This document shows positions 1,279-30,300 of a DNA stretch of 34,761 bases, in pieces. The position numbers were made by a program, and so were the translations under genes. Position 1 is the stretch's first letter. Each line of letters opens with the position of its first letter. Source of the DNA: a bacterium (GTDB lineage: Bacteria > Auribacterota > Auribacteria > Auribacterales > Auribacteraceae); contig JAGGZS010000023.1 of NCBI GenBank assembly GCA_021161885.1, positions 1-34,761 of the forward strand, read 5' to 3'. The notes beneath the pieces were generated by a model. That model did not search any database, had not been told where the DNA came from, and worked only from the letters and a program-made list of their open reading frames with translations.

Positions 1279-2303
1279 GAATCAAAAGAAGGTATCAAAG
1301 AATGAATTCACAAGATAAACTAAAAATTATCCGTCAAGTTGAGTCATCTCATAACATCAGCAGTGCGTTACATAGACTGGGCATAAACCGAAGTACTTAT
1401 TACAGATGGAAACATAAATTCAAATTGCTTGGTTCTGCAGGGTTATCTGACATCAACCCCATGGTTAATAAAAGATGGAACCAGTTAAGACCGAATGAAG
1501 AAGAAAAACTCTATGAACTGGCTTTATTTAAACCGGATTATTCATGCCGATAACTTGCATGGTATATTACGGATTATGAAGGGTTCAGCGTGTTAGAAAG
1601 CACCGTTTACAGGCGACTTAAGGCAAAAGGGCTTATCCCTGAACCTCGTATTAAAACGTTTGCTGCATCGCAGGAGTATAAAATCAAAACCACCGCGATC
1701 AACCAGCAATGGCAGACAGATGCCACCTACTTAAAAGTTAAACGGTGGGGATGGTTTTACTTAATCAGCGTACTTGATGATTTCAGCCGTAAAATACTTG
1801 CATGGGAATTACGATCATCAATGAGACACGAAGATTTCAGTTATGTTATAGAGCAGGCATGTGAATTTACAGGAATAGATAAAAAAGACAGTGAAAAGGA
1901 TACTTTTAACGTTAGATTAGTAACGGACAATGGTCCGGCTCTGATTAGTTCTGATTTCGCTGATTATCTGGAAGCTAAAGGGATAGGACATATATTCGCG
2001 TCACCTTATCATCGGCAAACCAACGGAAAAATTGAACGGTATCATAGGTCAGCTAAAGATAAAATATTATTGCATGTATGGGAATCACCGGACAAATTGA
2101 AAATTGAAATCGATAGGTTCATAAATTGGTATAACGGCTATCGTTATCATGAAGCTTTGGGCAATGTTACACCGGACGATGTCTATTTTGGTCGAAAAAA
2201 TTCTATACAGAATAAAAGAAAAATGCTACAAAAGAAAACTATGATAGCAAGAAAAAGGTTTAACAAAAATTCAACTGTAACAAGGGTCAAAACTCTCTCT
2301 TAA
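1272..2303 (+). pseudogene. IS3-family transposase OrfB (HTH + DDE/rve integrase core) interrupted by an in-frame TAA
   Basis: ORFs 1272-1553 and 1590-2303 share one frame and are separated only by TAA at 1551-1553 (...[30 protein letters not shown]...). The downstream part carries the DDE triad context [18 protein letters not shown] and [10 protein letters not shown]. Confidence 0.8.
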
Positions 2304-6300: not shown

Positions 6301-9300
6301 AGATTGTAAAATCTATGAGGAATAAACCGTAATCCTGCGATAAATTACCGCGTAAAACATTGTAAAGGTTCTTTTTAATATTACCAGCCGTATCAACAAG
6401 CACGCGGAAATCTATTTTATCTTTTTGTTTTTCACTTGTAATAAGAGTAACAACCTGAGCCTCGGGAACATCTTCAAGCTGCGCCTCAACCATAACTTTA
6501 TTTGTCATAAAAGAACTATGTGTTTGAATAACTAAAGCTGTGTTCCCGTTATTAATTTCTGTTAAGGTATTCCACAAATTAGGGGCAATCCATAAAGAAA
6601 CGGGCAGTTTAGTTATGTTCTCCTGTGTTAATTCCTTATTTGCTTGTTCTATTTGTGATGCCGGTTTTTGCGGTTGTTTGGTTTGCATTTTTTTCTGTAT
6701 TTTTTGAGAGGATTTTAATTCTTCCGCAGATATTCCTTCAAGGGTTATCTCACCTTTTTGTTGATTTGTTCCGTCTTTGATGGTGCCTGTCATTTGATTA
6801 TTAAAATCAGATTCATAGGCAGCGTCAAAATATTTAGCCATTAAATGTTTGCTTGACGGATGAAGTATTTCGGCGGTTATTTTACCCGGATAATAATGTT
6901 CAAGAATATTCACAAACCGCTCAAAAGTATTTATCATCAGTTTATTGCCCTGAAGCTGATCGGTATAAACGCGTCCAATACGCATATTGTTGAAATGAAT
7001 CATATCCTCTTTGAAATATTTTCTAAATGCCAGTAAATATTCGAATTCACCATCATAATCTACTCTGCCGCTTATAATCTGTTTTATATTTTTACGCACA
7101 TAACCCGCCTTATCGGCTATAACCCTATGATCTACGTAATCGGAATTAAAATCGCTCATAATAATGACAACCATTTGATCGTCGTCTATTAATGCTAATT
7201 GGTCTGTCAGGTCTTTTCGATTCGCCGCATTGATGCCATGCGCCTGTATAACTACAGGAGGTTTACCGTTATTAATGGCTGAAAAAGCATTCCATAAATC
7301 ATCTGCAATCCAAGCCGCAGCAGGCAATTGGTCAATAGTTTCATCTTTAATTTCATATTTATCCGTTTGCTTTTGAGATATGTCAGTTTCATCGAAACCC
7401 GATTGTAAATTAATGTATACGTTTTTATTTACAAGAAATTGTTTTAAAGAATCGGCTATGTTCTCAAGTTCAGTTTTATGCCAAGTTCCTATTCTTAATA
7501 TTTTGTCTTTACCTTTATTTTGATCGATTATATCCGTTAAATCTGCGTAAGCGCTGGATAGAAAATCTAAACCGTCTACCTTATCTGATGCGAGAATTCC
7601 CTCAAAAAGCATTTTTACTGTAAAAATGTCGGTATCAAGAGTCGATGACAATTGCGGATAATTATTTTTAACTATGCCGGATACTACATTATTGAAATAC
7701 CGCGCCATAAACATTAATAAATCGGAATATTTATCTGTTGATGATACGTATCCCAAGTCGACAATAGCCGCATTATAACCTGCATCTTTATCACCGGAAA
7801 CCATTATATTGCTGGGGTTTCTGTCATAATAAAGTTTAATGAAATTGAAATTTTTATGTACTTGATACAGTGCTCCGACTCCGACTTTTAAAATATCAGA
7901 TAACCGTTTCATATATTCACTGGCTTTTTCATTTGGTTTCATCATTAACTGTCCTGAAATTATTTTGCCGTCCCTATTTTCAACCAACATAGGTTCGCCT
8001 GGCAAAACAGATTCTGTATACACATCAAAAACAGGTTCAGCAGCAATTTCCCCGGGTTTAAACGCTCGTGAAGCAACCAGCGGCACAAGATCGGTTTTTC
8101 CTTTTCCCCTTTTTTCTCCATAAGCAAGAATAAGGTTAATATTTTCTATATCGAATTTTGAATCCGGACGCCGTTTGGATTTTAAAATAAACTGCATCGG
8201 CTGGTGTTCGCCCTTAACAAAAACAGTTATTTTATGGGCATATTTAAAATAACCTCTGCCTATATAATCGATATGAATGGATTCAATCATATCTTCGGTT
8301 ATATCTTTACGGTCAAACAATACGAATAATGTTCTTCGCAAAAGATTAGTTTCCTTTAAAGACTTTGTTATTTCCTCTGTAATTTTCGGACCGTTATTGA
8401 CAAGTCCGTCCTCATTATAAAAATCGGGAAAGGTACCGTTATATTTTTCAGAATAAGTTACAGTCCACTGCATACGTTGTTTTTGTTTGGTATCCGCCAC
8501 CTTTGGCATAAACTTTTTTATAACCCGCCATCCAGCTGTTGTTTGTTCTATGCCGGCGTTATTATCAAGCATATTGTCTAACATTGTGTAGAGTTTATCG
8601 TTAAAAGATTTTGCCTTTTCCGCGATACGTTTATCTTTAGCATTGTCTATCCACCATGACAACTCCCGTCTTGCTGTTATAAAATCGGTATTGCGAGAAT
8701 ATGGAGTATCAACTAAACTTTCAAACAAATTAATAATCTCTTCAGCGTTTGGAGCGTAATCAAAAGCATATTCATGCCGGAACTGATCTAACTGGAATAA
8801 AATAAGTTTTAAATGTTCCGACTCATCACGCGATCTGAGCAGGCCGCCTATTTCTAATCCCATCGACTTAGCGAGTTTGGAAATCAACTCATCATAAGGC
8901 AATGTAATATCCATATCGTCAAGTATTCCTATCATTTTCGCAGGCAAAGTTCCGTTATCAATAAATGTTAATACATCAATTAAAAAGGCTTTATTGGAAA
9001 ACGCCGGTTTGATTTGTTCAATAAAATTTTCAAGCGGCATTTTCGCTTTCTCCAGCCCGGACAGAAGCTGTTGCAAACTTTCCCTGAACTGTACGCTTTC
9101 CCATACCTTTAATTCTGATTCATCTTTAGGGGACAACCCTGCTTCATGGAGCAGTTCATGACGCAGGAACATTTTGAATAATAACTCGATTACCACCGGA
9201 TTTTTTATTTGAAAAATAGCTTTGTTTATTCCGATAAAATTATCGTCCAGATGATTTTCAGCTATGCGAAACGATTTAGTCAGCATAACAAAATCTATTT

Positions 9301-12300
9301 CACTTCCCTGAAGATTTTTAAGTATTTGTTCCTCGCCTGTTAAAATATCTTTAATCCAAGTTTCTATCATTTCGTTGGTAACAGGCGCTTCATGTTCAGA
9401 ATCGGCAAAATCATCATCGATTTTCATAGTGAATTCATAAGGTGTTCCGTTTTCAGTGATCAAAATAGGTACCTTGGCATAAGAGATATTCGCGAGTATC
9501 TCATTTAAACCTGTATAATTATTTTTGTGGAGCTGAAAATCATCACAATGATACTCAGGCGCCGGTATCCCGCCCATAAAAAAGCCTATTCCTGATAAAA
9601 TTTTAGCTAAAGGACCGTCCAGCTTCTTCACAGCCGCTTCTACATCGGGAGTTAATTCAGGATATAAACCGGCATATAATTTTAAAGTCGGTATATCTTT
9701 CCTGTTACCCAGTTCACCAAGAGCCTTTACTGTTTCCCGTTTAATGGAAATCCGATCCGCATAAAGCAGATGCCTTAAAATAGGAGCTGATTTTTTATCG
9801 CCTTTTTCGAGCATCATCGAAGGTATCTCTATCAGTACGGCCCTGTCATCGGCGGTTAAATCACGGCGGTCAAGTTTTCTTAATATATCTGCGAGAACCC
9901 CGATATAATTATCGCCGGCTATATCAATCATGGCTTTTAGAGCGGCTTGTTTCACATAAAACGAATAAGGGCTGTTTTTATCTACTATTGAATTGCCAAG
10001 TGTATTCATAGCATCGGAATATTTGTTCCTGCCCATAGCCAAAGCGGCTTGTTCTTTTTCGATATTATCGCCGGCTATATATAACCTTAAAAGCTCTTCA
10101 TTAAAAATTTTTTTCTTTAATGTTTCAACAGCTATTGTACTTTGAAAACCTTTATTTTTGTAGACGAGATGAAGTAAATGGCGAACCGCGCTTTTATCGC
10201 CTTTTCTTCCAAGCAAAATTGCCGAAGCGTCAACTATGCCTGCTTCCTGATTATTTAATCCCAGCCTTAAATACGCTATAAGATCATCGCCGTACTGCTC
10301 GAGAATATCTATCAAGTCATTAAATTCCAATGAATTTTCCGCTGTTGCCATTAGGTTCAGACTGTTCCATATATTATCAGACAATTTAAGCTGATTGGAG
10401 CGGTCAATACCGCGGGATTTAAGAAAATCGCCCGCCGCTTTTCTTACATCAGGATTCGGGTGTATAAGCAGATTATCAGCATCAACGTTCAAATCGGCTT
10501 TTAATTTATCCAAAACTTTTATTGCCAATACGACCGAAGTATCATCGGATTGTTGTGAAATGATTTTCCGCATAAACGGGATAACGGATTTATCGGCAAG
10601 TTTAAACACTGTTTTTTGAGCTTGCAGAGCTACTTTCTCGGAGCGGTCATTTATCATAGCGAACACATCCGCCATTGCGTCCGCATTACCGGTTTGGCCA
10701 ATAACATACAAAACTCCTTCACGGATGTTGGGGTTTTCCTTGTTCAGCGCGGTAATCAATAACGGTAACGCCTTGTCTTTAACAGCGGTTAAAGTATCTA
10801 CGGCAACGCTTCTATCTATAAGATTAAAACCAGCGAGACGGTTTATATTTTTTCTTATATCCGATTGCGTAACAGAATTTTTGTCTACAATATTTTCAAG
10901 CGCCCTATTCTCAATGGAGTACCCTATCGCGTTCAGTTTCAGCATTTCGTTGAGTTCCTTGAACACACTGGCTGTAAAATTTTCAGAAAAACCCCTGTTT
11001 GACATTAACGAGACAAACGCTTTCTGGTTAAATGAAGTGCCTGAACGCAAAGCCTGTTTAAGGGCAGGAGCGAAAACAGCGAGAAAATCGGTTACAGGAG
11101 TATAGCTGTATTTACCGTTAATTACGGCAGGAACATTTGTTTTTAGGGTAACTTCCAAATCAGCGGCTATGTGCATAAAGTTCAAGACCGTATCATACGA
11201 TTTTTTCTGGTCAAGAATAAATGTTTGGATTGCTTCCGCTTCTTCATGTGATAACCCCGCAAGATGAAACGCCTCATGTAGAACTACTACGGATTTTTCT
11301 TTATCAGTAAGAAGATTAGCGAATTTACCGCTCATATAAATATTATTCCTATCCTGATAATGTCCGTAATGAGCCGCAGCATATCTATTTCCTACCCAGA
11401 ACAAGATATTATCTGCCGGCAGGGAATAAATTTGCGTATTGTCAAGCGCTGTTGAAATATTGTCGATAAATTTATTAAAATCCGATTCAGAGTTTATTCC
11501 CTTTTCCTCAAACATTTTGTTAAGAAGGGGATTAACTGATAACTCGGCATAATTAAGTTCGGATAATAACGATTTTGCCTGTTTCCTCTCTTCCTTAAAA
11601 GGTAAAGGCTGAGGTTTTTTATCAAATAATTTTTTTATCATCTGGTTAAATGCGTCATGGCGGTGTTTGTCTGTTCCGCAAATATTTCCGAAAGACAGAT
11701 TATCTGCCTGATTTAAAGCCGCTAAGCGAACATCAGGCAGCTCTTTCCTGCGGGACACGGATAATTTTAAGTCTTTATTAGATAAAGCGTCATTAAGCGC
11801 AGTAAGAAACTCTTTAGCGGTCTTATACCGTTCGGTCTTATTTACCGCTAAAGATTGTTTCAAAATTTTTGTTATTTCAGTTCCCAACATAGATTCCATA
11901 AAATCGAAATCAAAATCACCTGATTGTATTAAGTCTGCCGTAAATTTGGTTTCGTCGAAATTGCGTAATTGGTCTGTTGATAAAAGTTGAAGTTTGGCGG
12001 ATACCGGATGGTGTCCTGTTAAAAGTTCGGCGAAAATAATGCCTAAGATAAACACATCGTTCTGCTCACTTAAAATTTCATACATCGTTTGTACTACTTG
12101 CCGATTTATCGTATCACGCAATTTATTGTTAATTTGTGTAGGCACTGATACATCAAACGGTTTAAGCTCATCGGCTATTTGCGGCATAACCACATTTATA
12201 AGAGTATTATAGGACGTGCTATATTTAAGTTCGGATTCCGTAAAGACGGATTCAAAAATAATTTTAATATTTTTTAATTGAGCGATTATATCATCAGCGG

Positions 12301-15300
12301 TTTTTAACGAACTGATTTTTCTTAATAAATCCTGCACCTTATTTTGCGCATTAGCCGCGTCAATCTTTTCAGGTGAAGAATAAAAAATATTTTTAGCGGT
12401 TAGCGATGGTTCTGAAAAAGGGCTGCTCTGACCGATTTTTAACGCTTGCGATAATCCTGTAAGAACTAAGGTATTGTCTGATCCTATAAACATATCAAAC
12501 GGGGTGATATCGTTTAAAACAATTTTTTTATCGTACATACCGATGAGCTGTTCTAAAACAGATTGCGCAAACGATAAAAGCGTTTCCGGCGAACTGATAT
12601 TTTTTGTTTTTTGCTCCATTGTTAGTGGATTATCTAATTTAATTGATAGAAAAGGGTTTTCTTCAAGCAGGTTATCGCCTGTAATTGCAGTTTGCTCGGG
12701 ATACATAGTTTTTGTTAAACTCATTTCCCGCTGCCAATCTTTAAATAAATTTTCAAGCTGTGTTCTTGAGAATCCGTCAAAGAGAGGAAGTTTAATCATT
12801 TTTATAAGAACAGTATTGCCGTTTTTATCCTGTCCTCTAAAAACAATGCTTTTATTATTTTCCCTGACAACATTTTCAATAGAATAATCTCCGGCTTTAC
12901 CGCTTAAACGGATGATATTTTCTTTTACTATGGCAGAAGAATATTTAGCGTAAAAAGTAACATTGTTAATCAATTTCTCTGCGACTTTTTTGTGCATTAA
13001 ATTCAGGTTTGTCGCTTTATCTACTTGTTTTATCATAGATGTTTCATTGCGGATTATTGTTTGGAAATATTTTTCAAGTTTCTGGAAATCTTCTAAAGTT
13101 CGGGCATTGTTAATTCTTGAAATAAAATCGGTCTTGATACGGTCACTGGCTAATCCGGGTTGTCTGTTTCCTGTGCGGTTAAAAACAGATTCAAGGGCAA
13201 GTGACGCCATATGCGGAAGCTCGTAAGCGGATTCGTCAATCTGCGACCTTAACATCTGGGCGAAAACCGTTGTGTTTGATGTTATATATTCAACAGGCAG
13301 GTAAATATGTATTTCACCGTTTCTTTTATTTGCTAATGAATCTACCCCTATATTTTGTAAATCGTTTATGCTTGCCAAATGTAAAATTACTGTGCCTGAA
13401 GCGGCAGTCGGGCTAATCTTTACTGTTTTGATACCCTCAGGCGAATGATTTATCTGTTCAATAATATTGCCAAGCATATCCGCAAGATCGGACATATAGG
13501 TATCTGACAAAATAGTCATCATACTTATTTGTTCGCTTATCTGTTTGCCGTCTTGTTTAATCCATCCGCTTAAAGTTGATATATAACTTTTTAAGCTGTT
13601 CGCCATCTTTGGAGTATATGAATAATTGTCCCAAGAGGTAGTAATAGAATTTAATGTTTCCGGATCAATCAGCGGAGCTTGCGCCGTCCATTGCGGTTCT
13701 TTTTTTAATAAACCTGAAAGAGAAGCCTTAACTTGCACCTCAATTTTATGTTCTTTATCTGTTTGGATATCCGATAAAACAACAGTTTTTTCACCAGAGT
13801 AAGCAGTACCGGTTTTCTGCTGAACTTTTTGCCATCCTTTACCTTCAGTCCACAACCATCCTTTAAGGTAATTTGCTGCGAGAATTTTTCTGACGGCAGC
13901 ACGATTGTAACTAAAAATAGGGTTAGATGAGTACTTCGGAGTATCATCATTGCTTGTAGCGAAGGCTATTATCTCAAGAATATTTGTTAAATAAATGTCT
14001 TCGGTTTTACCGTTTTTAATAAGATTTATCCTGATGTCATCAGGAGTCGAAAAATATATTCCTCCAACAATGAGTGCCCAGAACAACTGCTTATTATTAT
14101 CTATTGCCCATTGCAAAAATTGAAAAGGAATTTTTTCGATCCGGTATCCGTCTTTTGTTTCACCAAGATCGAAAATTTGATAATTTTCAGGCGTTTGTTT
14201 GTTATATTCATTTATTGCGTTTTTAAGTTTTTTTGACGGGTAAAAATTCATATTAACATTTACGGAAAAACGAATCGTACGTAGAGAATCTTTTATAGAA
14301 TAAGTATTACAGCAAGCGAACAGGATTCTCATTATATCGTCTGCCGGCATAATTTTTTCAAGATCGTTTATTTTATCCGGTTCAAGCACTGCCTGCTCCA
14401 TTAAGGTCAATAACGCATGATGACCTATGTACTCATGAATAAAAGTTTTACGCGGGGTTTTATCGGATACGAAAATCTCTCCGTGACGGCGCCATCCTTT
14501 GCGGACTTTATTTATCCCTTTAATCCGGCTTTTAAATATCGGTTTAGCCGATAGCGCTATCTCGTTGCCCCAGTTCGGTAAAGAATTCACTATTTCATCT
14601 GGGATATCCTGCAGTTCGGATAAGATAAGATTAAGATTATTAAGCAGATAAAACCGTTGGTCTTCGGTTTGGAGTTCGTTTGCGTCAAGGAAAATCGATG
14701 CGTTAATTCCTTTTTTATGCAGTTGTTGTATCTGTTTTATGATGCCTTCTTTTTTCAATAAATTGAAATCAAGCGAATGAAGCATACCGTCGGCTTGTTT
14801 TTTATCTTTTGCATCATGTCCTGTGCCGATAGTATCGTTGAACTCGCTGTAAAGCCAAATAAGGGTTTTTATATCTTCGATAATGTCTGTCAAGTCAACA
14901 TCTAAAGTTTCGTTTAATTGCGTTAATTCATCTTTCAGGTTTTCATATTGCAAAGCAGCATCATCTTTAACGCGTCCGATAGCGTCTGTGCGTGAAGTCA
15001 TTGCTTTATATAAATCATAATTAATAAAAATAGCTGACGATATTTTGTCCGCTGATTCCCTAACATAACGTTCTGTTAATGTCCTAATTCGAGCGTTTCT
15101 TTTTTCAATAGGAATATCAGTGTTATTTTTAATATCAGACAGAAGGGTTTTAAGTGATACTGTTTCGTTATTATAATTTATTTTCGCATCACGGCTTTTC
15201 TGCAGATGTTTCCAAAAGGCGTCAACCTTAGCAAAATCAATAATATCTTCCCCAAACTCAACCGGGTCAATAACTCCGATATCTTTTTGGTGGGCAGAAA

Positions 15301-18300
15301 ACATTTCTGGATTTTCAGTTTTATTTACGACAGCGGGAGAGGTTTTATAAAGATCAACCCATGCCCTGAACCACAGGTTTTTGGGGTTTTTAAACAGTTT
15401 CCTTAAAAGGTTATTCCATATGACTGCTTCCTGACTTTTTTTTGCTATAACCCCTCGCGCCCAATCCCTGAATTCATGTTCAAGAACCGTTTTTAATACT
15501 TTCATGCCGAAAACACGGTCGTTACCGCTCATGTTATCTACATATTCCAAGGTAGATGTGTTCAGATAAATTGTTTTTCTGCTCAAACCGGCATGAGCTA
15601 ACGCATCGCCTCGGAAAAAAACACCTTGTTCATCAACAAGCAAAGTCAAGAAAAAATCTTTAAGATAATCTTTATATTCCGAAGACCTTAAAATCAATAA
15701 AGCTGTTTTAAGAGCTTTTTGCAGTTTTACCCTGTATTGCGGGTTATTGAGTTTAGTTTCAAAATTTTTTCTTGCCGTATTAGATATTTTTAGATTAGCT
15801 TGTAACTTAACGGCTAACTGGGCTGTTGATAAATCTTTATCAAACAAAGTATAGACGAGTTCATCTATATTTGAATAATCCAAAGCGATACTTTTAAGGT
15901 CAATACGGATTGCGTCGCCGTTTTCTATGAGTTTAGATATTTCATTATCCACATTTGCCCTAATTTTCCCGCGGGCTAAACTTTGATTATTACGATTGTT
16001 GTCTGTTTCATCCTGTACTTGCGCTGTCTGCGCCATAATTTCAGGCAATATATTCCATAAAGCGGTAATTGCTCCGATTGAGAACCCAGCCATCGTAAAA
16101 ACTAAATTAATTATGGTTGACACAGGTTCAGCAGTGTCAATCATATATTGAGAAGCCATAGTCGAGAGAAAAGCTCCCAAGAAACCGAAAAATGTTCTTT
16201 GAGTTAATAAATCTGGGTTTGATTTTAGTTGCCTTATTACTCCTGCAACTAACAGTCTTGACGGTTCAACGTATTTATTTTTAAATTCTGCCCATAATTG
16301 AGGAAACACAGGCATAGTAATTGGTCTTGCCAATACCGGTTTAAGCGCGTTATAAGGGCGAATAAGAAGGAAATCACCAACTGTAATAAAATATTCAAAA
16401 AATGACGCGATAAGTGAAGAAAATAAAAAATTAACAGCCATAACAGGCGCCATTAATACGGTTTGAACTTTCTCATATCGACTAGCATGCTTGCCGAATA
16501 TAAAAATTGGAAGCGCAAATATCGCATAACCTAAAACTAATGCCCCAGATATCATCAGCAGCATATCAACTAAATGAAATATCGGTATCATTTCAATGGT
16601 CATAAACCCGAACATAGCAAATACAGGCACAAGCGCTGTATACATAATTGTTGTTATAATAGCCGGTATACGCATGTCCTTAGGCATTTTTGCGCCTTTA
16701 CGCATTAGCTGAAACATTCCGCCCGACCATCGTCTAGCCTGAATCCATTTTCCTTTCAATGTTTCGGGCATATCTGTTATAACCCTGAAATCTCTACGTC
16801 CGAAAAACTTAAATTTAGAATTTTTATTTTGCCTCAGCAAACCGGATAATTCGGCATCGTCAGTTTCAAAAATACCCGAATGCTTTTGTAATGCCCTAAC
16901 TAGATAAGGCACCAAATAACCACCGCCTCCCCCTGGAACCGACATAGTAAAAAAGGTATTTAACGACCTTAACCATGCAAGATAAAGAAAATTTATTTTT
17001 TTAAGAAGCGAGGTGCCTTTAGGCAAAGTGCCGAACGAGGTAGATAAAGGCAGTATATTGGCTATGATACGGTTCCCGTCTTTTTCAACATGACCTAACA
17101 TATTGGCGGCGTCTTTGAGCGCGCCTGATATATCTGTGCCTTCAATGTAAGAATCGCCGTCCATAATAAAAAGTTTTTCAGGCAATTTTTTTATTTTTCT
17201 ATGTTCAGCAAGTGAATATAACCCTAACACCGCATCTCGAATAGCGCCTGTTCTATGCCCGTTTTTATCACGTAAAATCATATTAAAATCATAAACCTGT
17301 TCACCGGTTTCCGGATTAATATAGTTTTCCCATGAAGCAAGTTCGTTTCGTGTTATGCTTTCAAGAGCTTGTAACCCTTGGCGTTCATCATCGGTTATAT
17401 CTGCTTTTGCAAGCCGTAAGGCGATATCTTGCAATTTCGCGTTGAGCAGTTTAATATTATATTTCCTGTTAAAGCGTTTGAGTAAATCTTGTGTTCCGTC
17501 GGTTGAGGCGTCATCAACTATAACGAGTTTATCAAGATATTTTCCTTCATACGCTTTTTTGAGAATATTTTCCATAAGGTCAGGATCATCTCGGGACAGA
17601 AGGTTAAATACCGGAGTAACTATAAAAAAATCCGATGCGAATTCTAAATCTTTTAATTGATCGGCATATTGGATTTCGTCAAGAGGAAGCGGCCGGAATT
17701 CTTCCAAACTGCTAACAGGTATTTTTGAGGAAAACCGGCGTAAATCTATATTATATTTTTCGCCGTATTTATCTGTAAAATCGGCAAGATTTTCTATAAC
17801 AACTTGTTGTTCCTTACCAAATATTTTTTTAAGGTTTGTCTTGTTTAAAGCTGCGGCTCTGCTTAATAACGCCAAAACTTTACCTGCAGATAAAACCCCC
17901 ATCTCATCAATTAATTGTGAAGATATAACAAACTCCGGCAACCCTTTAGGCTGTATTTTGAAATATTCTTTTATTTGTCCGTCAACTTTATGCAGTTCCC
18001 TTATTTCTTTCGGACGATTTTGAAGTTCCGCCCAAAATTTTTCTACCTGTTTGAACGATATTGGTTTTCCTTGAAAATAAACAGGCTCAACTTTCCCTAT
18101 ATCCTCCGCGTGTCCGCCCCGCAGATAATCGCGGTACTCGTGTTCGTAAACCGCTTGCAGAATACGTTTTGAGTATGCCTGATCTTCAGGCTCCATTTCG
18201 GCGATATACATCAGGGTAGACAAATTCAGGTAAAAACTTTTATTTTCAGCACCCACATGCGAAAGGGCTTGCGCGTTATAAAATTCACCTTCCCAATCAA

Positions 18301-21300
18301 GCAGAACGGTTAATGAAAAATCGGAAATTTTGTCGATTATTTTTGAAGACCGTAAAACATCAAACCCGAGAACCAACGATTTTCTCAGCCGTTCTTTGCT
18401 CATCGGGTCAGAGAGCTGTTTTTTTAATTCTTCTTGGGCAGCAGCCGGCAAATCCGTAAATAATCGTTGGAGATTAACTGATGTTTCTTCTGGCGATCCC
18501 TCAAAAAGCGGATTTATTATATCTTCCGATACATTATTGTTCAAGCTATCAAGGGGTACTCTTACCGCTTTGCCGGATAAAATATGTTCTCTTATTATTT
18601 TATTAATATCCTCAACAGATTTTCGCTGAAGGCTTTTTTCTGAACGCACAGTTTGGGGACTTTTTAAAAATTTTTGATCGCCATTAACGGCTTTTTGTGC
18701 GCGGGCAAGTTGTTCTGCCATTACAATATCTATTGTTTGCGACGTTAACTGCGCGTAAGACTCAATAAGGTCTAACGGGAACAAAGAAGCAAACGTCGTT
18801 CCAACCGCTTCAGAATCAAATTTATTTATAAAGGAATTGATATTTTTGCCGTAAGAATTTTTAACGGCTTCGTCAAGATAACTGAGCATATCAAGAGCCA
18901 GCTCAGAATGTTTGTTTAATAAATCTGAAATAATATTTAATGAATCTGTTTTGTCTTTTATATCACGTTCGTTACGTATAGTGGAATTCATATAAGTAGA
19001 AGATACAAGCACATCAACAGCCTCAGCGAAACTATCAAAGCCGGCAGGCATTTGCGAACTGAGTTTAAACTGAAGAGCAAGTTCTTTGTTATTATATAGT
19101 TTTACATCGGACTTGACAATTTGAGATAGAGAATATCCTGTTGAATCTTTAAATAACCGATTAAAAGATGTAAGCGTTAAAGGAATATCCATCTGCTGAG
19201 ATGTTTCAGCAACAATTTCCTCAAGAAAGGCTGTCTGAGCCTTACCGGAAACAGGGGTTCTTAGTAAAGAAAACATAAAATCGACTATTTGGCTTGCTGT
19301 AGATTTATCTAAAAGCTGTTTGCCGGTAAATGACTGCGATAACCGCAAAGCCAACATAGATATTCTATCTATTTCAGTCTGATTAATATACTGCTGGTTA
19401 TTTTTTCGTTTAAAAAACTGTTTTGCCTGCGGATTATTACGCAGTAATGTTTGCGGATATAAACCTGTAATATCCATAACAAACTGTTCAAAATCAGAAT
19501 ATGCTTTATTTGATTTTAATAAAATTGTATTAAGCGCAAGACTGCGCGCCTGATTGTCGGGAAGGTTAGAAAATATTTTCATAAAACTGTTTACAAACCT
19601 AATGGGCGTAACATAAATCTGACCGTTTAAAGCATATTCGATTATTTTAATATCTGTATCTATATTAAACGATTTCAATGGGCCATCCAACTGATTTGAA
19701 ACTTTTTCCGTATATAACCCTACAGCCCAAGCGACAGCCTCATCGCCTAATTCACCGTTAATAGTCTTTAGCGTAGCAGGGGTAAATTTTTTATTTTGGT
19801 CTGTAATCCAGCCATTCATTACTGACAACAGGGTATTCCAAGGATTATCTTTATTGTTCTCAACATATTCCAGTTCAGCTTCGCTAAGAGGCAATCCATT
19901 GGCTATTAGATTAAGATTTTTTATGGTTCTGCGCTGTTCTGCGGTTATATCTTCAGATTGAGAGATAAGATCGTTAAGATCGTTTTCGGAGTAAATTGTC
20001 CGGTCGCGTAAAATTGAACGGATAATCTGTTCGAAATCCATTTTCTTCACTATCTGTTTAACATTGCGCTGTGAAAGAGTATCGTTAAGTTTATTCCATA
20101 ACCGCATATCAGCGAACTGCGCATACCGTTCGTCTTGTCCGAGTTTATTCATCAAACTTTTTAACGCTGAGGCGATTGCTTTACCCCGTTCGGTTTTGTT
20201 AGGAAATTTTTCCGTTACAAAATCAATATATTTTTGCCTGAAATTTTCAGTAATATTTTTAAAAGGAACTTTAAGTATTCCGACTGAGAACTCATTGATT
20301 ATTCCGAATACCTCATTTTGAATTTCCTCAAAATCAGAGGTTGTGCTGTCTTTTATTTTAGATTTAAGTTTATCAACCACACTATCGGCAACTTCGGGCG
20401 ATACCAGTTCCGCTACAAGAAGAAGCAGGGGTAACTGATACATCATTTTAGGTGACTTGTGCATCAGGTATTTAAAAAAATTGGTTTTTGCGTACATATG
20501 GTCTATAAGTTCAAGATTAAATATTGAGTCGAGATCATCAAACAAGCTGTTTTTTTCGTCTTCCGTTAAAGTTTCAGTAAGTTCCAACTTAGCGACTATT
20601 GCCATTAAAGGCGCGAAAACAGCTGATGCTTCAGCGGAATAAACATTATATAGAAGCGGACTTTTTAGGGCGTCATCAACAAAAAGTTTCATTTCATGAG
20701 CTTTTGAGATTTGCACAAGTAAAGCGGCAAGTTTTTCTACTGGAATATCTTTTATTTGATTAAGCAGCACATCAGCGACCGGATTTTCCTCTTTATTTAT
20801 GTTAAGAAGTTTAAACATTCTTTTAACGATATTTATTTCTATTTCATTATTTTCTATATAAATAATATGCGCACCTTGCGGATAACCAGGAAAAGGATAT
20901 GTTTTATCGCTCAGGATATACTGGGCGGGAGCAATATTATAAAACGGATCCTTAATTCTTTTCCCTCTTAAGATTAAAACAGTCTCCTGTTTGCCGTTAA
21001 TGGTTACCTTATGTTCTTCAACGTTATCGTTATAGAAATCAAAAATGTATTCGCCGTTATAAACAATACCTATATGAAAAAAGAAATCAGCATTTATTTT
21101 TGTTCGGAACTCCATAAACATTTCGTTTCCTGCTAACCGGTCGTTAGCGTCTCCGCTTCGCATTAACCTGCCTATTTCAAGCGCATTGGCCATGAAATTT
21201 TCAATATGCTCCGCAGCTTTTTTAAATCCTAAACTTTGGATTTTATCAGTTAAATTTTTAAGGTTTTTAATCGCCTCTGGATCAAGTTCCTGTTTGTTTT

Positions 21301-24300
21301 CAACAAGCGCGTCTATAGATTTAGCCAGCTTATCGCCCATAGATATTCTTGTTGTCTCATCAACAATATCTAATACAGGCAGCTCATTTTCTTGCTGAAC
21401 AGGTAAACTGTTCATATGCTTTACAATATTTTCTAACGGATTAGATGAGTTGAGAATATCTTTTAAGGTTTCATTATCGGATTGACGCTGAACCATATTC
21501 AAGCCTCTTAGGATAGCATCTATCGCAAGCCGTTGGTTATTGCGCGCAATACGCGAGGGGACTTGCCCTTTTAAAGGCAAATATCCGACAAGAGCGTTTC
21601 TCATAAAAACAGCGGTTCCTTGAAAAGCTGAATTCACATCAGATTCAGCGGGCAACCGACTGACAACGGTTTTAAAACTTCCTTCAGTATCGCTTTTTAA
21701 AGTTCGGCCTATAACAGCTTCATATTTATCTATATTATTTATAAGAATGCGTTCGCGGGCTAATTCGCTCGGACTCCATTGGTAATCGGAACTGTCTTTT
21801 GTTGTCCTGAATTTAACCGCAAAATCAATAACATCGCCCAATTGTGCCTTTAAATTAGGATATTTTGATGATAATGAAGGATTTTCTATTAAAACACGGG
21901 CGATTTGTACAACCTTGTCCAATCGGGCGCGCTTTATGTTGAATTCAGATATATGCCTGAGCAATGCTTGGGTATCTGTTTCAGCCGGTTTTTTCGATTC
22001 ATCCATAGAAGAAAAAACTATCGGTTTAATTTGCTGAAAACTATTGGACTTTTTTGCCTGAAAAATTTTCAGATAATTATCGTTAGAAACAATTCCTACA
22101 CGATACAGTAAATCAATAATTGAAAAGAAATGTTTATAATTGGATTCATTAATTTCGGTTTGTTTAAAATAATCTCGTATTTTAAATTCAGCTCCTATTT
22201 CCCGATTGAGAAGGGATACCACCCTTAACTCTTTAGTCAGACTTTGAACAGGCACGGAAGATAACCCCGCCATTTGGTATAGCGCGTATTCATTGCGTAT
22301 AAATTCCGATCCCAAACCGCCAACTTGCTGTAACTGCTCGGAAAATGACAAGTTGCTCTGGGATATGCCTTCACGGCTTATGGTTTTCTTAAACGTAAAC
22401 GCCAAGTTCTCAAAGGTAGTTCCATAAGCTATTGCCGGTATGTTAGAGCGTAAATTAGCTAAGGTATCGGCGTTCAATGATATATTAAAAGAGCCGTCGT
22501 CTAAATTTGATACTGTTTTTATAAGGATAATATCTTTATCCGTTAATCCTTGCTGAGAAGCGGCTCGTTCAATAATTAGGTTAATTTTGTCGGCATTTCC
22601 CAAACCGTGCCTGAAATCATATTCAATGTTAATTACAGTATAAGGTTTTTTGTTATTCATTGCTAATAAAGCGTTATTTAATCGTTCGCCTACAAACGAC
22701 TGGGCGGGCAACTGTTGTAAAATATTTTGTGTATCACTTATATCAAACGTAATATTTGTAAAATCGCCGGAAACAAAGCTGGTCAGGTTATCTATCAGTC
22801 GGGATATATCGTTTTTCTCCATTTGGGCAAGATAAGGAACTGCAGCAGGATGAGCCGGATCGTTCACGACGGATTTAAGTATATCCGTAAGAACTGCTAA
22901 TCCCGCTTGATTAGAACTTTGCTCCAGTTTATTAAAATACGCTTCACTAAAAAGAGGCTGTATATTTTTCGGTATAGTTACCCCCTGATTTTTTAACTGT
23001 AAAAATTGAGCCGCAATATCTTTAAAATTATGGACTTCAGCAAACTTGATTTCTGTAGATACTATGCCTTGCGATTGTTCACGGCTAAGATTGATATCAG
23101 CATATAGTTTAGCAAGTTTTTCGGCGGTCTCAACAGGATACGCAGGTTTTTCAGTAGTATTTTCTTGTTGGTTATTTGTTTTATAGCTGTCTATATAATC
23201 GGTAAGTTTTTTTTCAAAAACAATAAGTTCTTCAAGCGTCCTTTGGTAACCGCCTATTTTTTTCACTATCTGATAGCTATGAATTTCTTTACGGGACTGG
23301 ATAAATCGTTGCAGACTGTTTCTGGTTTGCTCAAGAACTTTTATGCCCGTTACCGGATCGGACTGGATAATACCGTCAAAAATAGTTTCCGGCAAATAAG
23401 TCTCTATATAAATATTTTTCATTTCAGGATTTAACGAGTTTAATACACCTGATTTTAAAACCATATCTATATACAAAACAATATCAAAAAAATCTGTGGT
23501 TTTCTCTATGGCGGTAACATTGGCTAACCCAGCTTCATACTTATTATTCTCATTCATTCGAATCATTATGCCCGATGGATTAACAACAGGGATATATTCA
23601 AGCATAGATAGTTCAGCCTGCCTGTATAACACACCTGATGCCAAAGAGATAATATTGCTTAACCTTTCGGAATATTCCTGTTCGGTTTCCGCGCCAAGCA
23701 TATGAACCATATCTTCTGTAGATTCTTGCGAGATAAGCCGTACTAACGGCTGACCCTGTAAATATGATTCTATAAAAAAGTTATAGTCTGCTTGAGTATT
23801 CCCGTCAAATTCATTTACAATACCTGCGAACACAGGGCTTATCGCTTCCTGCCCAGCTTGCTCGCCAAGAACAAAAGGCTCAAGATTTTTTATCAATAAA
23901 CCCATGTCGCCTTTCTTATGCTGATTGAGCACAAACCGGTAAGGCTCAGGCTGTCCTTCTATAATTACGCTGACAAGATGGGCATATTTTAATGCGCCTT
24001 TTTGTAAATAATCAATATGAATATTTTTTATAGATGAAGCCGGCACATCAGTAAGCCCATATATGGCAAAAAGCATTTGCTTAACCAGATTTGTATTTTT
24101 TAGGATATTTTCTATTTCACTTAAAATTTCCGTTGCCGGTTTTTCGGCTGAAACATCCATATCTTTTGATATGGTATTATATATATCAGCATGGGATATG
24201 TGCCAATTTCCCCTAATTTTCGCGTCATTTTTCTGTTCAAGCAAGTTATCCAACTTAGAATATAATCGGGCAAAATTAGACCATGCGGTTTTGCGCAGCT

Positions 24301-27300
24301 TATTGTTTTTTGAGTTGGTTACCCACCACAAAAGCTCTTTTTTTACAGCATTAAATTCATTGGATTGAGAAAATTCAATATCCGTTAATGTCTTTAATAA
24401 TCCGTTAATTGCCATTAAATCGGCAGATGTCAGCTTCTCAAAATTTTTAAAATTATCTAATGACGATACCTTTGACCTGATAACAGGCATAACAGACTGC
24501 GCTTTTGCTTGCGGCGGATAATGATGGATTAGAACTAACGGTATATTTTCCTGTTCAGCCCGTTTTCTGGCTTTATAAAAATTTGAGTTCGGATCGTTAA
24601 ACGGCGATAACGAGTCGCTGATATCAAGATTTGTATTCGGATCGGTTACCATAACAGCTATTCCTTTTATCGCTCCTTCCGCTAAAACTTCATTAACCGG
24701 CATATCTGTAAAAGGGTTAGGCTTAATTTTTATTTCACCGTTATCTACTTTTTTATTAAACTCAATTCTTTTCGCCCGTTTTTCTTTATTCCCTTTCGCC
24801 TCGGCGATATAATCTCTCAACATTCTTAATCTGGCGTTATCTTTTGCCCGTTCGACAGTAAAGCGGTTCATAAAATCGGTTAAATAATTTTTTAATCTTA
24901 TTGGAATTTGCGCGGATATTCGGTCTTCAGCCGACATATACACATAATACTGTTCATATTCCCCGAGCATTTCCAGCACATCTTTATATCCGTGTTTTTC
25001 AAGCAACGGATTTCGTATCTCATTAATTATGCTGTCCATACGAGCCTGATAAGTTAGCGATGACACATCCTCGCTATGCACATTTAATCTCGACGGCTGT
25101 TCCGCTTCTGAAGCAATGCTGAACCGGTCTATGGTTACAGGAAACATTTCGTCGATTAACCAGCTTACCTGTCCGTTTTTAATTGTATCCGTCTTAAAAT
25201 ATCCATGATACCCTGCGGTCTCTAATGACGCGCGAACTGTGCTGTTTTTCGCGTTAAAAACGGAAAACATATTCACGCCCACATCAGATTTATATTCAAG
25301 GCTGAAATACGGATTATTCAATTCAGGATATATGTTGATAACCTGAAAATTTCTATTTATATCAGAAGCAAGAGTATAAATCGGCAAAGCGGAAGTTACG
25401 TTAACATAATTTTTAGCCGCAACATCGTGCCGTTTATCAAAAGACAAATTTATGCCGGCTGCTGCTGCTGTCTCAAACAATTGTTTATCAGCATCTATCC
25501 AATACAATCCTGCTGGATCAGCGTTATCGAGCAAGACGCCGAGCAAAGTATCCAACCGGCGCTGCCGTTCAAATGGGACAGGCAATGCGTTGATAATCGT
25601 TTTACGCTGTTGTGTCGATAATCCGCTTGAAGCAAGAACGGCAGAGATTATAAAATCGAATTTTTTATTATAATCAGCAATATTTCCTTCGGTTTTCAGA
25701 TTGGTTAACTGGTCGGACAACAGCAAGATATATCCTATCAATTCATCAGGCACTTTTATATTTATAGAGCCGATACTTATTACCCCTTTATTATTTTTAA
25801 TTTGTTCAAGGAAAGAATCTATCTGAATATTTACTGCTGTTCCCGCTAATTTTTTGCTGCGTATTTCACGCAGTACAGGCAGTTCAGCGAGTCCCCATTC
25901 ATTTTTAACTAAATTTTCCAATCTCAAATACAGCTCATCAGCCGGCTGCCCGTTTAAATTATCAAAAATACTGCTGTATAATTTATTAAGCAAATGAATA
26001 TCTATATCTGAAATGGAACGGGTAAACTTTTCGGAAACTAATTTTGATATAACAATATTCCTTAATTCGCCCGATTTAGTGCTATTGAGCATATCCGCTA
26101 ACTGTTTTATCTGACCAAAAATATCCTGATTAATAGATTGTTTCTGAATAATAGAATTCATAATAGAATTAACAAGATTATCTGCTTTTGCTTCAAATTT
26201 TGATTGTATAACAGGTAAATTAGTAAAATGTTCACTGGCAAAATCTTTTATTTGATTACGCAAATTTTTATAATCATTGATTTTAAACAGCAGCCCGTCG
26301 GTTTGCACATCTGTTTTCTTGGTACCTGTATCGGAGTCAATTAACAGCGAATCAAGTTCAGATAAAGATTGTTTTATAAAATTCAAACCATCCGCTTCAT
26401 TGATTATGGTATTTAAAATTAAAATTAATGTATTTTCATCGCCAATACTTTTCCTTACATCAATAGGCATCGGGGCGATTACATTATTTTCGACAACCTG
26501 TTGTAATAACAATAAAAGATCAAACGATTTATTAATGTCAGCCCGTTGATTTCCCGCGTTATCAGCATTAATAACAGCAGTTACGCCGCCGGACTCATCT
26601 AATTTTAAAACAATTCCCTGCGGCTCAATATTTTTAAAACTCCATTTATTGTCTATATTTGCAGACATCCTGTATAAAGCGGATACAACCGCAGGCAATA
26701 CTTTACGTACACGAACGCGATAATGCGCTGCAGTCTCATCAGGACGAATGGATACAAACCCCGATTGTCCGTTCACCGCGTTAGAACCAACTAAAGGTAT
26801 TCCTTTTATAACCGATTCCCCAGCGAACTTAAATGCTCCACTGGCTGCGCCTTTATTAATTCCTTCAAAAAATACGCCCTGCACCACTGCGGGTTGGGTT
26901 GCGTTTTTTCCTGCAATATCCATTATTTCTTTATACAAAATAGTTTTCATAGATTCGTTAAAAACCCCTTTTTGGATTCCCTCATCTACGAAAACTTTTA
27001 ATGCCTCTAAGTGATTTAATTTATCCGTTTGCGATAATTGAGTATTTTTAAGGGCTTGAAGATGGTTGCCGATATCCCGTAAAATGTCTAAATTTTTATT
27101 TCTGGATTGTTTTTCGGATTCAGGGATAATTTTGTTCAATCCGATAACGTCGTCATCTAACAAATAAACTAATCTTTGCCCCATAATCAACCCGTTTATT
27201 CCGGGGATATTGGCGATTTGCGCGAAGATTGTTTCACAAGCGGATGGGCTTTGATCTGCTGACAATTCAGGCTGAATCAATCCGGCAAGGTAAGGATAAG

Positions 27301-30300
27301 TTTGAGACGAACCGTAATTATCGGCTACGGCAATAATTTTTCCTATAACTATTGAATCCATAATTTGATTGCGGTCGCTTTTGTTTAATGCGTCTAAAGG
27401 CAGATCGAAATTGTCTGTCAAATAGGTATTTAAAAAAGTTTTATCTGAAGTGGATATTTCAATACCCTCATTAATATTTTTCAATAACCCGTAACTGCGA
27501 TTATCATTTTGCACTTCTGTTTTAAAATCATCCCCGATTTTAAGTTGAGTCTTATTTATAATATATTCTACCGCCTTTTGTTCTAAAGACGATAAAACCG
27601 AAAATCCTGAATCTTCTTGTGTTTTTTCAATAAAAGCGTTAACAAGCTCAATACTCCTTTGTTCGTATCCTAAACTTAACGCAGCACCTTCCGGCGCTGG
27701 TGTGAAGTATCCTAACCCGCTGAAATAAATAGCCGTTCTCATCAAAAGAGATGATCTCGCTTGATTCTTAAATTTAATATTGTCAAAAAGATTTTCAACG
27801 AAAGAAAAAATTTCATTTAAATGATGTTCATTGTGGAAAGTAACATCGCTGCGCCTACTCTTAGGGTTAGCCATATAGTCAATGACAAAATTTCTTACTA
27901 ATTCAAGATTTGGGTCAGCGCTGTATCTTTTAAGAACTTTATCGATGTTTTGTGCGTTTCGCTTACTCAATGAAGATTCTATTGTTTCGGTTTTGTTTTG
28001 GATAACCTCGCCAACAGGACTTGTTAAAGAAGATTTTAATTGGTTTACAAGAGAAACATTTGTTTTTATGATATTCATCAAATTAGTGTCTGCTAAAACT
28101 TTTTTAAACACATTTTTTAATAATTCCCGTTTCTCTTTGCCGGTTCGGTTATCGGAATATTCGCTTATCAATCGGTTTAACAATTTTTTTATTTCAGAAT
28201 CGCTTAACCGCTCCCCTTTACTGAGCAGCTCACCTGCCATAGGGATATCGGTATCCGCCAAATTTATTTTTATATTTAAAAATTGTTTTAATTTATCCGC
28301 AGCAGATGAGGTTTGGGTTACAAGGGATGCAGCAGCGGGAAGCGGTTGCCCGATTACAGTATCAGCGCTAAAAAGAACCTGCCTAACCGTAGATATAAAA
28401 TTATTATTTCCTTCAGCGGATAGAATCGTCTCATAAATATTATTTTTGAATTGAGTGCCGGGCTGTTGAGTTTGTCTTAATACAAAACTAAACGGTTTTT
28501 CGTATCCATCGATATGCACAGTTATTAAATGAGAATACTGGTGTTCATCTTTTCCGAGAAACTCCACTTCAATATTGGATATTGCCTCTGGAGTTATGTC
28601 TATTAAGCCGTGGGCAAGAAAAAGCATTTCCTGAACGATATGGGTGTTTTTCAAAACATTTTCAACACTTTTAAAAATTTCAGGACCACGGTTTGCGCCC
28701 ATTACAGGATGATCAAACTCTTTGCTGTTTGCGTCATAGGCTGTCGACGGGGATATTTTCCAATTCTCTTTATCTATAGAATCAGCGAGTTTAGGGATTA
28801 TTTCAGATATTCTTGCATCCATTTTCTTAAATGCTGATTTCGCAAAATTTACTATCAAGTCATCTTTAGCGTTAAGTATCCACCATACGATTTCTTTACG
28901 AACAGCAAGGAACTCATCGGCATTAGTAAACGGTATTCTTATTAGATCGATAATCAAATCCGTTACTTCATTTTGTTCCTGATAAGATAATTTTTTCTCT
29001 TTATATTTTGATAACGATTCAGACGCTACGGCTATTTTAGAGAATACATTTATGGTTTCGGTAGATTTTTTTTCTTTAACGATTTCAGCTGCTGTAATGC
29101 CCGCTTTTTTATCGAATTGATGTTCAAGCCGTTTGGCCTTTTTTATATCCGATGCTATATGGTCTCTTAAACCGTTGCGAAGTTCAGCTCTTTTAGCTGC
29201 GGTTAAAGTATGCCAGCTGACAGGTTCAAGTCCGGCGAGTTTCATTGCTTCATTCTGCCACATAATAAGTTCCAATGCTTCATGCAGTGCGAGTTCTTCA
29301 GTAAAGGCGTTGCCCGCGATATAAACCGAATTTCGTTCAAGCCCTGCGTGTCCGCGCTGATTGCCGACGAGGATATTTTCACCTTCAATCACATAAACTT
29401 TAATTCGTCGTCCATTTACAACTACATCGTCCATTCGTTTTAGTTTACCGTCGGAATATGCTTTTCTTATCTGGTCGTTGACTTCCTTGTGGGGACCTGC
29501 TTTAAGCCTAATATCCGCAAAATTTATATCTTTTGCCTTTGAAGAGGGTTCGCTGCTGTCATCAATCGCTTTTCGTATTACCGTTCCGTTTACCTCAATC
29601 ATACCGTTAGAAAAAACTCTTGTAGTTGTTCCGTCGTTATGAATTATTCTCAACACGTTGCCTTCGCCGTCTTCAAACCCCCATAATTTGACATTAATAA
29701 ATCCAATAGCGATATCATTATCGGTTTTAAAATTTACTTCGATTTTATCGGTTTCAATTTGTGATATAACTTGAAAAAAAGTGTTTGACTGGGGAACTCT
29801 ATCTGCGTCAGCTATTTGTCTAATCTGTTCAACACCTGATGGTTTAGGTGGCAGTTCGGAAAAATCTGATGATTCCGGCGGGAAAGCATCCAGCACAGGT
29901 CTTTGAAGTTCCTGCATTTTTTTTCTTGTTTGCTCAATTTGTTTGGCGAGGTCTCCTGTTTCTTTAACATGAAGATCAATCTTTAGGGTGTTGCCTCTTC
30001 CTAACTCCCTAATAATGTCAAGTTTATAGGCTTGCTGGTCTACGATAAAAGAAGTTGAAAAATCTCTGGGCAACTTTTGGAAAAAATTAAACCAAAACTG
30101 AGCGGGGACTCCGTTTTCAATATCAATTGAAGTTATTCCTGCTTGTTCAAAATAGTTCCTGATATAATCCGGCAGCGATTCAGCATCTTGTGTGATATTC
30201 CAAACATATCTTGAATCTTTTGTTTTTTCACTTAAATTAGCGATGACTTTAAGTATAGGGCTAACCGCAAATTCGTTTCCGTCAATATTGGTTATTAAAT

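Follow-up and report, generated by a model that had tools for sequence, protein, structure and literature searches.

The 34,761-nucleotide stretch analysed here (the window) comprises positions 1 to 34,761 of contig JAGGZS010000023.1 in GenBank assembly GCA_021161885.1, from a bacterium of the phylum Auribacterota, and its reverse strand carries a giant open reading frame (ORF) of 9,700 codons whose predicted protein holds three copies of a kinase-like module (copies 1 to 3, numbered from the N-terminus; Table 1). The interpretation that we favour, with moderate confidence, is that these modules form a new divergent family of the kinase fold in which copy 3 is an active ATP-dependent phosphotransferase and copies 1 and 2 are pseudokinases.

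Table 1. Features of the giant protein and its surroundings. Residues a..b of the giant protein correspond to window positions (32482-3b+1)..(32482-3(a-1)), and the coordinates were checked by translation. Profile matches are to a hidden Markov model (HMM) built from external modules only (see text); aa, amino acids; iE, independent E-value; pLDDT, predicted local distance difference test score.
Feature	Residues (aa)	Window positions	Strand	Remarks
Giant ORF, 9,700 aa		3380-32482	-	Holds all modules
Copy 1, N-terminal half	1159-1382	28337-29008	-	WW extension and N-lobe, FVLR in place of FILK; profile match aa 1167-1362, HMM 7-208, iE 7e-42
Copy 1, WW motif	1196-1206	28865-28897	-	KEIVWWILNAK
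Copy 1, insertion of ~460-480 aa	1383-1841	26960-28336	-	Predicted all-helical; conserved in orthologue P0001
Copy 1, C-terminal half (C-lobe)	1842-2103	26174-26959	-	Profile match aa 1842-2081, HMM 193-426, iE 1e-18
Copy 2, complete module	2677-3130	23093-24454	-	Predicted pseudokinase; profile match aa 2684-3096, HMM 5-426, iE 9e-72
Copy 2, WW motif	2715-2725	24308-24340	-	KELLWWVTNSK
Copy 3, complete WW and kinase-like module	7900-8353	7424-8785	-	Profile match aa 7912-8350, HMM 9-427, iE 7e-82
Copy 3, WW motif	7939-7949	8636-8668	-	RELSWWIDNAK; N-terminal extension, model helix 38-54
Copy 3, specific insert of ~30 aa	~7975-8003	~8477-8563	-	In the N-terminal extension; model residues 82-110, pLDDT <50
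Copy 3, glycine-rich loop	8074-8083	8234-8263	-	IGRGYFKYAH; turn between model strands 173-183 and 188-196
Copy 3, strand-3 FILK	K8101	8180-8191	-	VAIK-type lysine; model strand 203-211
Copy 3, helix-C segment	E8113	8135-8155	-	FDIENIN; predicted partner of K8101; model helix 215-227
Copy 3, catalytic loop	D8220, N8225	7799-7831	-	YYDRNPSNIMV; in register with PKA YRDLKPENLLI and twitchin LDLKPENIMF
Copy 3, DFG-equivalent	D8242, G8244	7748-7765	-	IVDLGY; model residues 349-351 are DLG
Hanks-type kinase-like domain	~6533-6900	11783-12886	-	Looks catalytically degenerate
Signal-peptide-like N-terminus	1-30	32393-32482	-	Conserved in P0003
GT2-like glycosyltransferase domain and transmembrane-like cluster	4952-5478	16049-17629	-	Weak Pfam GT2 and PgaC-like matches
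HExxH motif	7068-7076	11255-11281	-	LHEAFHLAG
HExxH motif	7774-7782	9137-9163	-	RHELLHEAG
Domains A and B next to copy 3	8359-8953	5624-7408	-	Unannotated, duplicated
IS3-family transposase		943-2303	+	ORFs 943-1278, 1272-1553 and 1590-2303

The tryptophan dipeptide WW occurs exactly three times in the 9,700 residues (at aa 1200, 2719 and 7943), against an expectation of about 0.44 from the tryptophan content, and each one heads a module of ~450 aa that is about 25% identical to the other two. A preliminary description of this DNA had drawn attention to a distinctive motif at W1200, W2719 and W7943, and all three occurrences were found, although its strict pattern matched copies 2 and 3 and missed copy 1 through a trivial slip (isoleucine stands where [EL] had been written). 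A second motif, said to lie about 95-120 aa downstream, is seen at +101, +99 and +123 aa in copies 1, 2 and 3 (ISNIEVEFLG, IKNIHIDYLQ and IESIHIDYIG), and the strand ending in F-[VI]-L-[RNK] is present as FVLR1336, FVLN2853 and FILK8101. The paralogy that had been proposed is borne out by blastp comparisons within the protein, which lie far beyond chance (E of 2e-33 for copies 1 and 2, 2e-26 for copies 1 and 3, and 5e-43 over ~440 residues for copies 2 and 3). These alignments identify the three segments as anciently diverged paralogues in a domain family that had not been annotated before. A neighbour-joining tree of the modules is star-like, with 23% bootstrap support for copies 1 and 2 as sisters and 55% for monophyly of the window copies, and it does not resolve in what order the duplications and losses took place.

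As a non-circular test, an HMM was built from eight modules of other proteins only, and this external model finds exactly four matches in the window protein, one to each of copies 2 and 3 and two, to complementary halves, in copy 1 (Table 1). Copy 1 had been thought to stop after its N-lobe (at aa 1340), but its C-terminal half lies beyond the insertion and contains a degenerate catalytic loop (FKNIEPQGIVL, aa 1949-1959) and the sequence INADNA (aa 1971-1976); blastp also matches aa 1856-2081 to the corresponding half in copy 3 (E 5e-10) and in copy 2 (E 8e-7). The helix-C/strand-4 loop is where the module is broken, and in the model of copy 3 described below this loop (residues 232-257) is at the surface and of low confidence; a Pfam search of the inserted segment returned no credible match. 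These comparisons indicate that copy 1 is a complete dead module split by an insertion, and not a truncated one. Copy 1, though split, is thus complete and no less dead than copy 2, and in place of the graded decay that had been suggested there are one intact copy and two dead ones, both of the latter complete. Within the insertion, a stretch at aa ~1639-1709 is confidently modelled (pLDDT 73-93), and an H-N-E-H-H motif lies at aa 1550.

An AlphaFold2 (AF2) model of copy 3 (aa 7894-8400), made from an alignment of 11 sequences, has a pLDDT of 74.9 and a predicted TM-score (pTM) of 0.76, and shows a bilobal arrangement with a beta-rich N-lobe that includes helix C and a helical C-lobe. Its elements follow one another as three strands, helix C, hinge strands, helix E, catalytic-loop strands, the DFG position and the helical C-lobe, with the catalytic loop standing before strands 333-338 and 342-347. 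When this model was compared with the PDB by Foldseek, all 50 matches listed were kinase-fold proteins, 23 of them at E<=1e-3; the best was TTBK1 (7jxy_B, E 4.5e-5, probability 1.0), TTBK1/2 and CK1 lead the list, and EGFR, JAK, CaMKII, PINK1 and the phosphoinositide 3-kinase (PI3K) Vps34 are among the further matches. Matches in the viral BFVD library were likewise almost all annotated kinases, in agreement with the kinase-like fold of the preliminary description; the ABC1/UbiB, RIO, APH or Fam20-like families that it had expected gave no Pfam match at E<=10 and are not among the top 50 Foldseek PDB matches.

Profile comparisons give a similar picture. When the family profile was compared with PDB sequences, nine of the 12 matches listed at E up to 10 were Ser/Thr kinases, and the alignments to twitchin and DCLK1 cover the glycine-rich loop, the catalytic loop (DLKPEN in twitchin) and DFG, that to twitchin being in register throughout. 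In an hhalign comparison with a PKA sequence, D8220, N8225 and D8242 map exactly onto D166, N171 and D184; the D/N/D positions thus superpose among the copies and map onto both PKA and twitchin, as the preliminary description had anticipated. On this structural and profile evidence, we consider a kinase-like fold of the module very probable. The PDB profile search ranked the de novo helical protein Syn-F4 first (E 0.0015); this alignment lies over the WW helices and is regarded as a match of helical composition. A single-sequence phmmer search of the PDB with copy 3 returned noise only.

The glycine-rich loop and strand-3 lysine that had been assigned to copy 3 agree with the strands of its model, the former aligning with twitchin LGTGAFGVVH, and the predicted catalytic loop and DFG-equivalent are both present (Table 1). 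Among the three copies, copy 3 alone has the D-x4-N and DFG aspartate in the register of known kinases, and it is the sole bearer of a full catalytic set among the four kinase-fold domains of the giant protein. The strand-3 lysine is conserved in seven of the 11 modules that cover this column, and also in the orthologue of copy 3 encoded at locus L002 of another Auribacterota genome, which retains the glutamate and the copy-3-specific insert as well. Neither copy 1, copy 2 nor most homologues have this insert, which reads GWRVIKKFMP in copy 3 and GWRLIRKIMP at L002. The residue pattern of copy 3 suggests that it is, most probably, an active ATP-dependent phosphotransferase whose catalytic geometry is canonical. 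In such an enzyme K8101 of strand 3, in a pair with E8113 of helix C, would anchor the phosphates of ATP, and N8225 and D8242 would be the Mg2+ ligands and D8220 the catalytic base, while copies 1 and 2 could serve as scaffolds or binding modules.

The region that follows the DFG-equivalent differs from that of canonical protein kinases, in which an activation segment of ~20-35 residues ends in APE and the P+1 loop; copy 3 seems to lack such a segment. In its model the DLG at residues 349-351 leads into a short strand (353-355) and a long helix from residue 359, with ~7-10 residues between DLG and helix, and no APE-like motif was seen in the family alignment. The activation segment of copy 3 therefore seems, from the model, to be very short, with the APE and P+1 loop absent. 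Because this substrate-binding element seems absent, the acceptor may be a small molecule, a glycan, a lipid or an unconventional protein substrate.

Relatives of the module are few. An exhaustive HMMER search of 1.84 billion (1.84e9) protein cluster representatives found 11, several of them giants in their own right (4,788, 5,394 and 6,562 aa). A word-indexed search of 5.8 billion proteins gave no match with either copy 3 or the family alignment, scans of genomes and metagenomes with copy 3 found no close relatives, and an alignment-based metagenome scan recovered only P0003, which was already known. P0003 belongs to locus L004 and P0007 to L005, while P0004, P0005 and P0006 derive from one ORF of at least 6,978 aa at locus L006 of a UBP3 metagenome-assembled genome (MAG). 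None of the 11 members matches any Pfam family, and neither Pfam nor NCBIfam has a model that matches the module itself. The family is rare and unannotated, and so far it is seen mainly in giant proteins of Auribacterota.

Two features set the family apart: a helical N-terminal extension of ~170 aa that carries the WW..N motif, conserved in eight of the nine external and window modules that span this region, and a strongly conserved helix pair, L-K-N-T-N..M-L-F (or, more loosely, L-x-N-T-N...M-L-F), before strand 1. When the five key columns (K8101, E8113, D8220, N8225 and D8242 in copy-3 numbering) were read from a 15-row alignment, K, E, D, N and D were found in copy 3 and also in P0002, P0003, P0004, P0006, P0008 and P0010. 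The same columns hold N, K, a gap, G and N in copy 2, R, N, N, G and D (followed by A in place of G) in copy 1, and N, N, N, N and N in the P0001 orthologue of copy 2, while P0005 has N, R, D, N and D (DMN) and a catalytic loop, SDIKPENIMV, of almost textbook sequence. The L006 giant thus carries three modules, two intact and one partly degenerate (K to N, DFG to DMN), and multi-copy arrays with some inactive members therefore recur in these proteins. The module at aa 5598-5767 of P0007 (L005, Candidatus Auribacter fodinae) truly ends after its N-lobe, with WW changed to SW and the lysine to R, and no C-terminal half was detected anywhere in the 6,562 aa of this protein, so that the family does include truncated relics of the module, though window copy 1 is not one of them.

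Copies 1 and 2 lack both the strand-3 lysine and the helix-C glutamate that seven modules keep. In copy 2, FILK is replaced by FVLN, and the segments that align with the catalytic loop and DFG-equivalent of copy 3 read IPVVNPSGIMI and LANVTA, so that all five residues are lost, in keeping with the inactivity earlier predicted for this copy. Both copies fall within the definition of a pseudokinase (loss of at least one of the strand-3 lysine, the catalytic aspartate and the DFG aspartate), and both are homologous over their full length to copy 3 and to intact external modules. The protein fragment P0001 is an orthologue of the window protein (60% identity over 4,780 aa) in which the counterparts of copies 1 and 2 have lost the K/E/D/N/D set too. 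In bins of 100 residues, identity to P0001 is 44-63% for copies 1 and 2, against 60% for the whole alignment, and the dead copies are being kept as folded domains. These patterns make it most likely that copies 1 and 2 are pseudokinases that act in structure, binding or regulation.

Several observations count against an active kinase-fold copy accompanied by two complete dead ones. The Foldseek superpositions of copy 3 have modest TM-scores (target-normalised TM-score, TMt, up to 0.43) and a root-mean-square deviation (RMSD) of about 11 A, as is expected for a divergent domain with an N-terminal extension of ~170 residues, and the model rests on an alignment of 11 sequences. The profile matches to kinases in the PDB are marginal (E 0.016-0.6), the hhalign match to PKA is a single weak local one (E 0.009, probability 4.6%), Pfam Pkinase (PF00069) is matched neither by the three copies (copy 3 to E<=10) nor by the 11 family members (E<=1-10), and no NCBIfam kinase model matches the module. 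The giant protein also contains a fourth, Hanks-type kinase-like domain, and hhalign found no similarity between the module profile and this region (aa ~6533-6900); the two kinds of kinase-like domain in the protein are therefore not close relatives. The glycine-rich loop of copy 3 has GxG only. The model of split copy 1 (aa 1150-2131) is poor (pLDDT 57, pTM 0.33), and Foldseek searches with it gave nothing significant, with helical-repeat proteins dominating and kinases at E of about 1-2, so that the evidence for the split is that of the sequence. Finally, the membrane topology of the giant protein is ambiguous, and copy 3 might face a compartment without ATP. Besides the N-terminal signal-like segment, hydropathy reveals a single hydrophobic cluster (aa 5275-5478), which follows the GT2 domain, and the analysis neither gives an unambiguous number of membrane spans nor fixes the side on which copy 3 sits. 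Cleavage and export at the N-terminus would make ~5,200 residues extracytoplasmic, among them the GT2 catalytic domain and both dead copies, which is hard to reconcile with nucleotide-dependent enzymes.

These observations bear differently on the other ways in which the modules could be understood. That they are not kinase-fold domains at all, with the D/N/D residues aligned by chance and the AF2 model biased by a shallow alignment, would agree with the lack of a significant sequence match to any kinase family, with TM-scores below 0.5 and with an alignment of 11 sequences; it is nevertheless very improbable, since four independent lines of evidence agree: motif order and spacing are conserved across the family, kinases make up nearly all of the marginal profile matches and keep the register between the glycine-rich loop and DFG, two structure libraries return kinases almost exclusively at a probability of about 1.0, and the order of secondary structures follows the kinase pattern. 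An unlikely, though less remote, alternative is that all three copies are non-catalytic scaffolds, copy 3 binding a nucleotide as a conformational switch or structural cofactor in the manner of some pseudokinases. Two of the three copies are clearly dead yet conserved, the Hanks-type domain is degenerate too, and copy 3 itself has an incomplete glycine-rich loop and seems to lack an activation segment and substrate platform, all of which would fit such a role, but K, E, D, N and D are jointly kept in seven independent modules at ~20-30% pairwise identity, as purifying selection on catalysis predicts, and an aspartate in the position of the catalytic base is unnecessary for nucleotide binding alone.

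Non-canonical chemistry has been discovered in several atypical families of the kinase fold, and copy 3 could be active in AMPylation (as is SelO), glutamylation (as is SidJ) or another nucleotide-dependent transfer. The high divergence of the family, an N-terminal extension that is unique to it and packs against the kinase core, and its missing activation segment leave room for this option, which we nonetheless consider improbable: where such chemistry is known, the canonical motifs are altered (SelO lacks the catalytic-loop aspartate), whereas copy 3 and its relatives keep a textbook D-x4-N ... D-x-G in register with PKA and twitchin, and no SelO, SidJ or Fic-like structure is among the top 50 Foldseek PDB matches. 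Phosphotransfer by copy 3 with two pseudokinase paralogues is thus the reading retained here. A more speculative and rather doubtful extension of it is that the family is restricted to the phylum and that its active members phosphorylate a glycan, a lipid or an envelope precursor, or perform non-canonical chemistry, within a giant membrane-embedded multi-enzyme machine that also includes the GT2 domain, HEAT repeats, HExxH domains and the unannotated domains A and B, with the dead paralogues, one of which hosts the large insertion, acting as platforms for substrate binding or assembly.

By fold, the nearest known kinases to copy 3 are those of the CK1/TTBK group (PDB 7jxy, 4btj, 1csn and 6pxn), with which it shares a bilobal fold, a GxG between strands 1 and 2, the strand-3 lysine, the helix-C glutamate, a D-x-[KN]-x-x-N loop and a D-x-G 17 residues past the asparagine. 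In contrast to these kinases, to which it is only ~10-13% identical, with the low TMt and absent Pfam Pkinase match given above, the module has the WW..N helical extension and helix pair and no recognisable APE or P+1 segment. A helical domain also precedes and accompanies the kinase domain in Vps34 (2x6k/2x6h), which stands at ranks 24 and 36 of the Foldseek PDB list with the longest alignments (520-526 columns) and the highest query-normalised TM-scores (TMq 0.28-0.32); these long alignments may reflect the helical domain. The DRNPSN of copy 3 resembles the D-R-H-x-x-N pattern of PI3K catalytic loops, but the E-value for Vps34 (1e-3) is weaker than those for protein kinases, and Pfam PI3_PI4_kinase is not matched.

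Kinase-fold enzymes without an activation loop include RIO, Bud32, APH/choline-kinase-like and Kdo/WaaP sugar kinases. Like these minimal kinases, copy 3 is predicted to have a very short stretch between the DFG-equivalent and the next helix, which makes a non-peptide substrate conceivable, and the likeness would agree with a bacterial envelope context (the GT2 domain in the same protein and an adjoining LpxL-like gene), although none of them was found by Pfam to E 10 or among the top 50 Foldseek PDB matches. In JAK (JH2-JH1) and GCN2, a competent kinase domain and a paralogous pseudokinase are joined in one polypeptide, and the giant protein similarly combines a catalytically competent kinase-fold copy, as predicted here, with conserved dead paralogues. 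Unlike the adjacent domains of JAK and GCN2, its copies are separated by thousands of residues (aa ~1160, ~2680 and ~7900), one dead copy carries an insertion of ~460-480 aa, and the family is unrelated to them at the sequence level.

A search of the literature on Auribacterota and giant genes found no description of the module, which constitutes a new family, divergent within a fold that is itself very well known, and adds an unannotated, very rare group to the protein-kinase-like superfamily. It provides a first functional handle on an almost wholly unannotated class of giant proteins from an uncultivated phylum, and the three copies offer a natural series for studying how a kinase fold is reused once catalysis is lost, since one of them is intact and the other two are dead, one of these accommodating a large insertion. 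Its impact is limited by the fact that architectures of active and pseudokinase domains, including those of JAKs and GCN2, are well known and that new kinase-like families are found regularly.

Beyond weak GT2, HEAT and Pkinase matches, Pfam and NCBIfam searches of the giant protein returned almost nothing. Queries with the GT2 region found related giant ORFs only in MAGs labelled Candidatus Auribacterota, Candidatus Auribacter fodinae or UBP3, or in unclassified bacteria. Orthologous giant ORFs are present at Auribacterota MAG loci L002-L006, and the giant gene is real, because these related loci keep the frame open for at least 6,300-6,980 codons. The exact neighbouring gene was found solely on a 1.8-kb ENA metagenome contig (ERZ23499350), and the giant gene seems to be absent from, or fragmented in, indexed protein collections.

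The protein begins with a signal-peptide-like segment (MLFKPKSKLFMRLCALILMEAMLFSNIAYA, followed by DN). The Hanks-type domain, which the preliminary description did not pick up, matches Pfam Pkinase at 31.9 bits (cut-off 31.7) and aligns with S. aureus Stk1 and with StkP; its motifs read VLIKM, IVLNDITPFD (HRD..N replaced by LND..D) and LVLTGLS (DFG replaced by TGL), a pattern on which it looks catalytically degenerate. The GT2 domain is flanked by a duplicated domain of ~180 aa with a HE[YF]RD motif (aa 4613-4789 and 5497-5677), and this unit with its flanking repeats occurs two to three times in the related giants P0003 and P0007. The two HExxH motifs may mark zinc-metalloprotease-like sites, and between them lie HEAT repeats (aa 7218-7290 and beyond; Pfam HEAT_2 E 1e-17).

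Two further duplicated domains, for which Pfam gave nothing credible, adjoin the WW-kinase modules. Domain A, with the pattern RGHAG...HE..E...WQ, occurs at aa 985-1123 and, with 45% identity, at aa 8815-8953, whereas domain B occurs at aa 8359-8568 and 8599-8809 (35% identical), with a weaker match at aa 3218-3385, and has an L-R-G-K-G-L motif that presumably recalls GNAT motif A. Both domains can also be seen by eye in P0006 and P0011, which suggests that A, B and the kinase-like module form a recurring cassette.

The genes that flank the giant ORF are of ordinary bacterial kinds and encode an IS3-type transposase, an NAD-epimerase-like protein, an LpxL-like lipid A acyltransferase whose gene adjoins the giant gene, an ACT-domain protein and a peptide deformylase. 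The transposase, near the 3' end of the giant gene, has the usual orfA/orfB order of the IS3 family.

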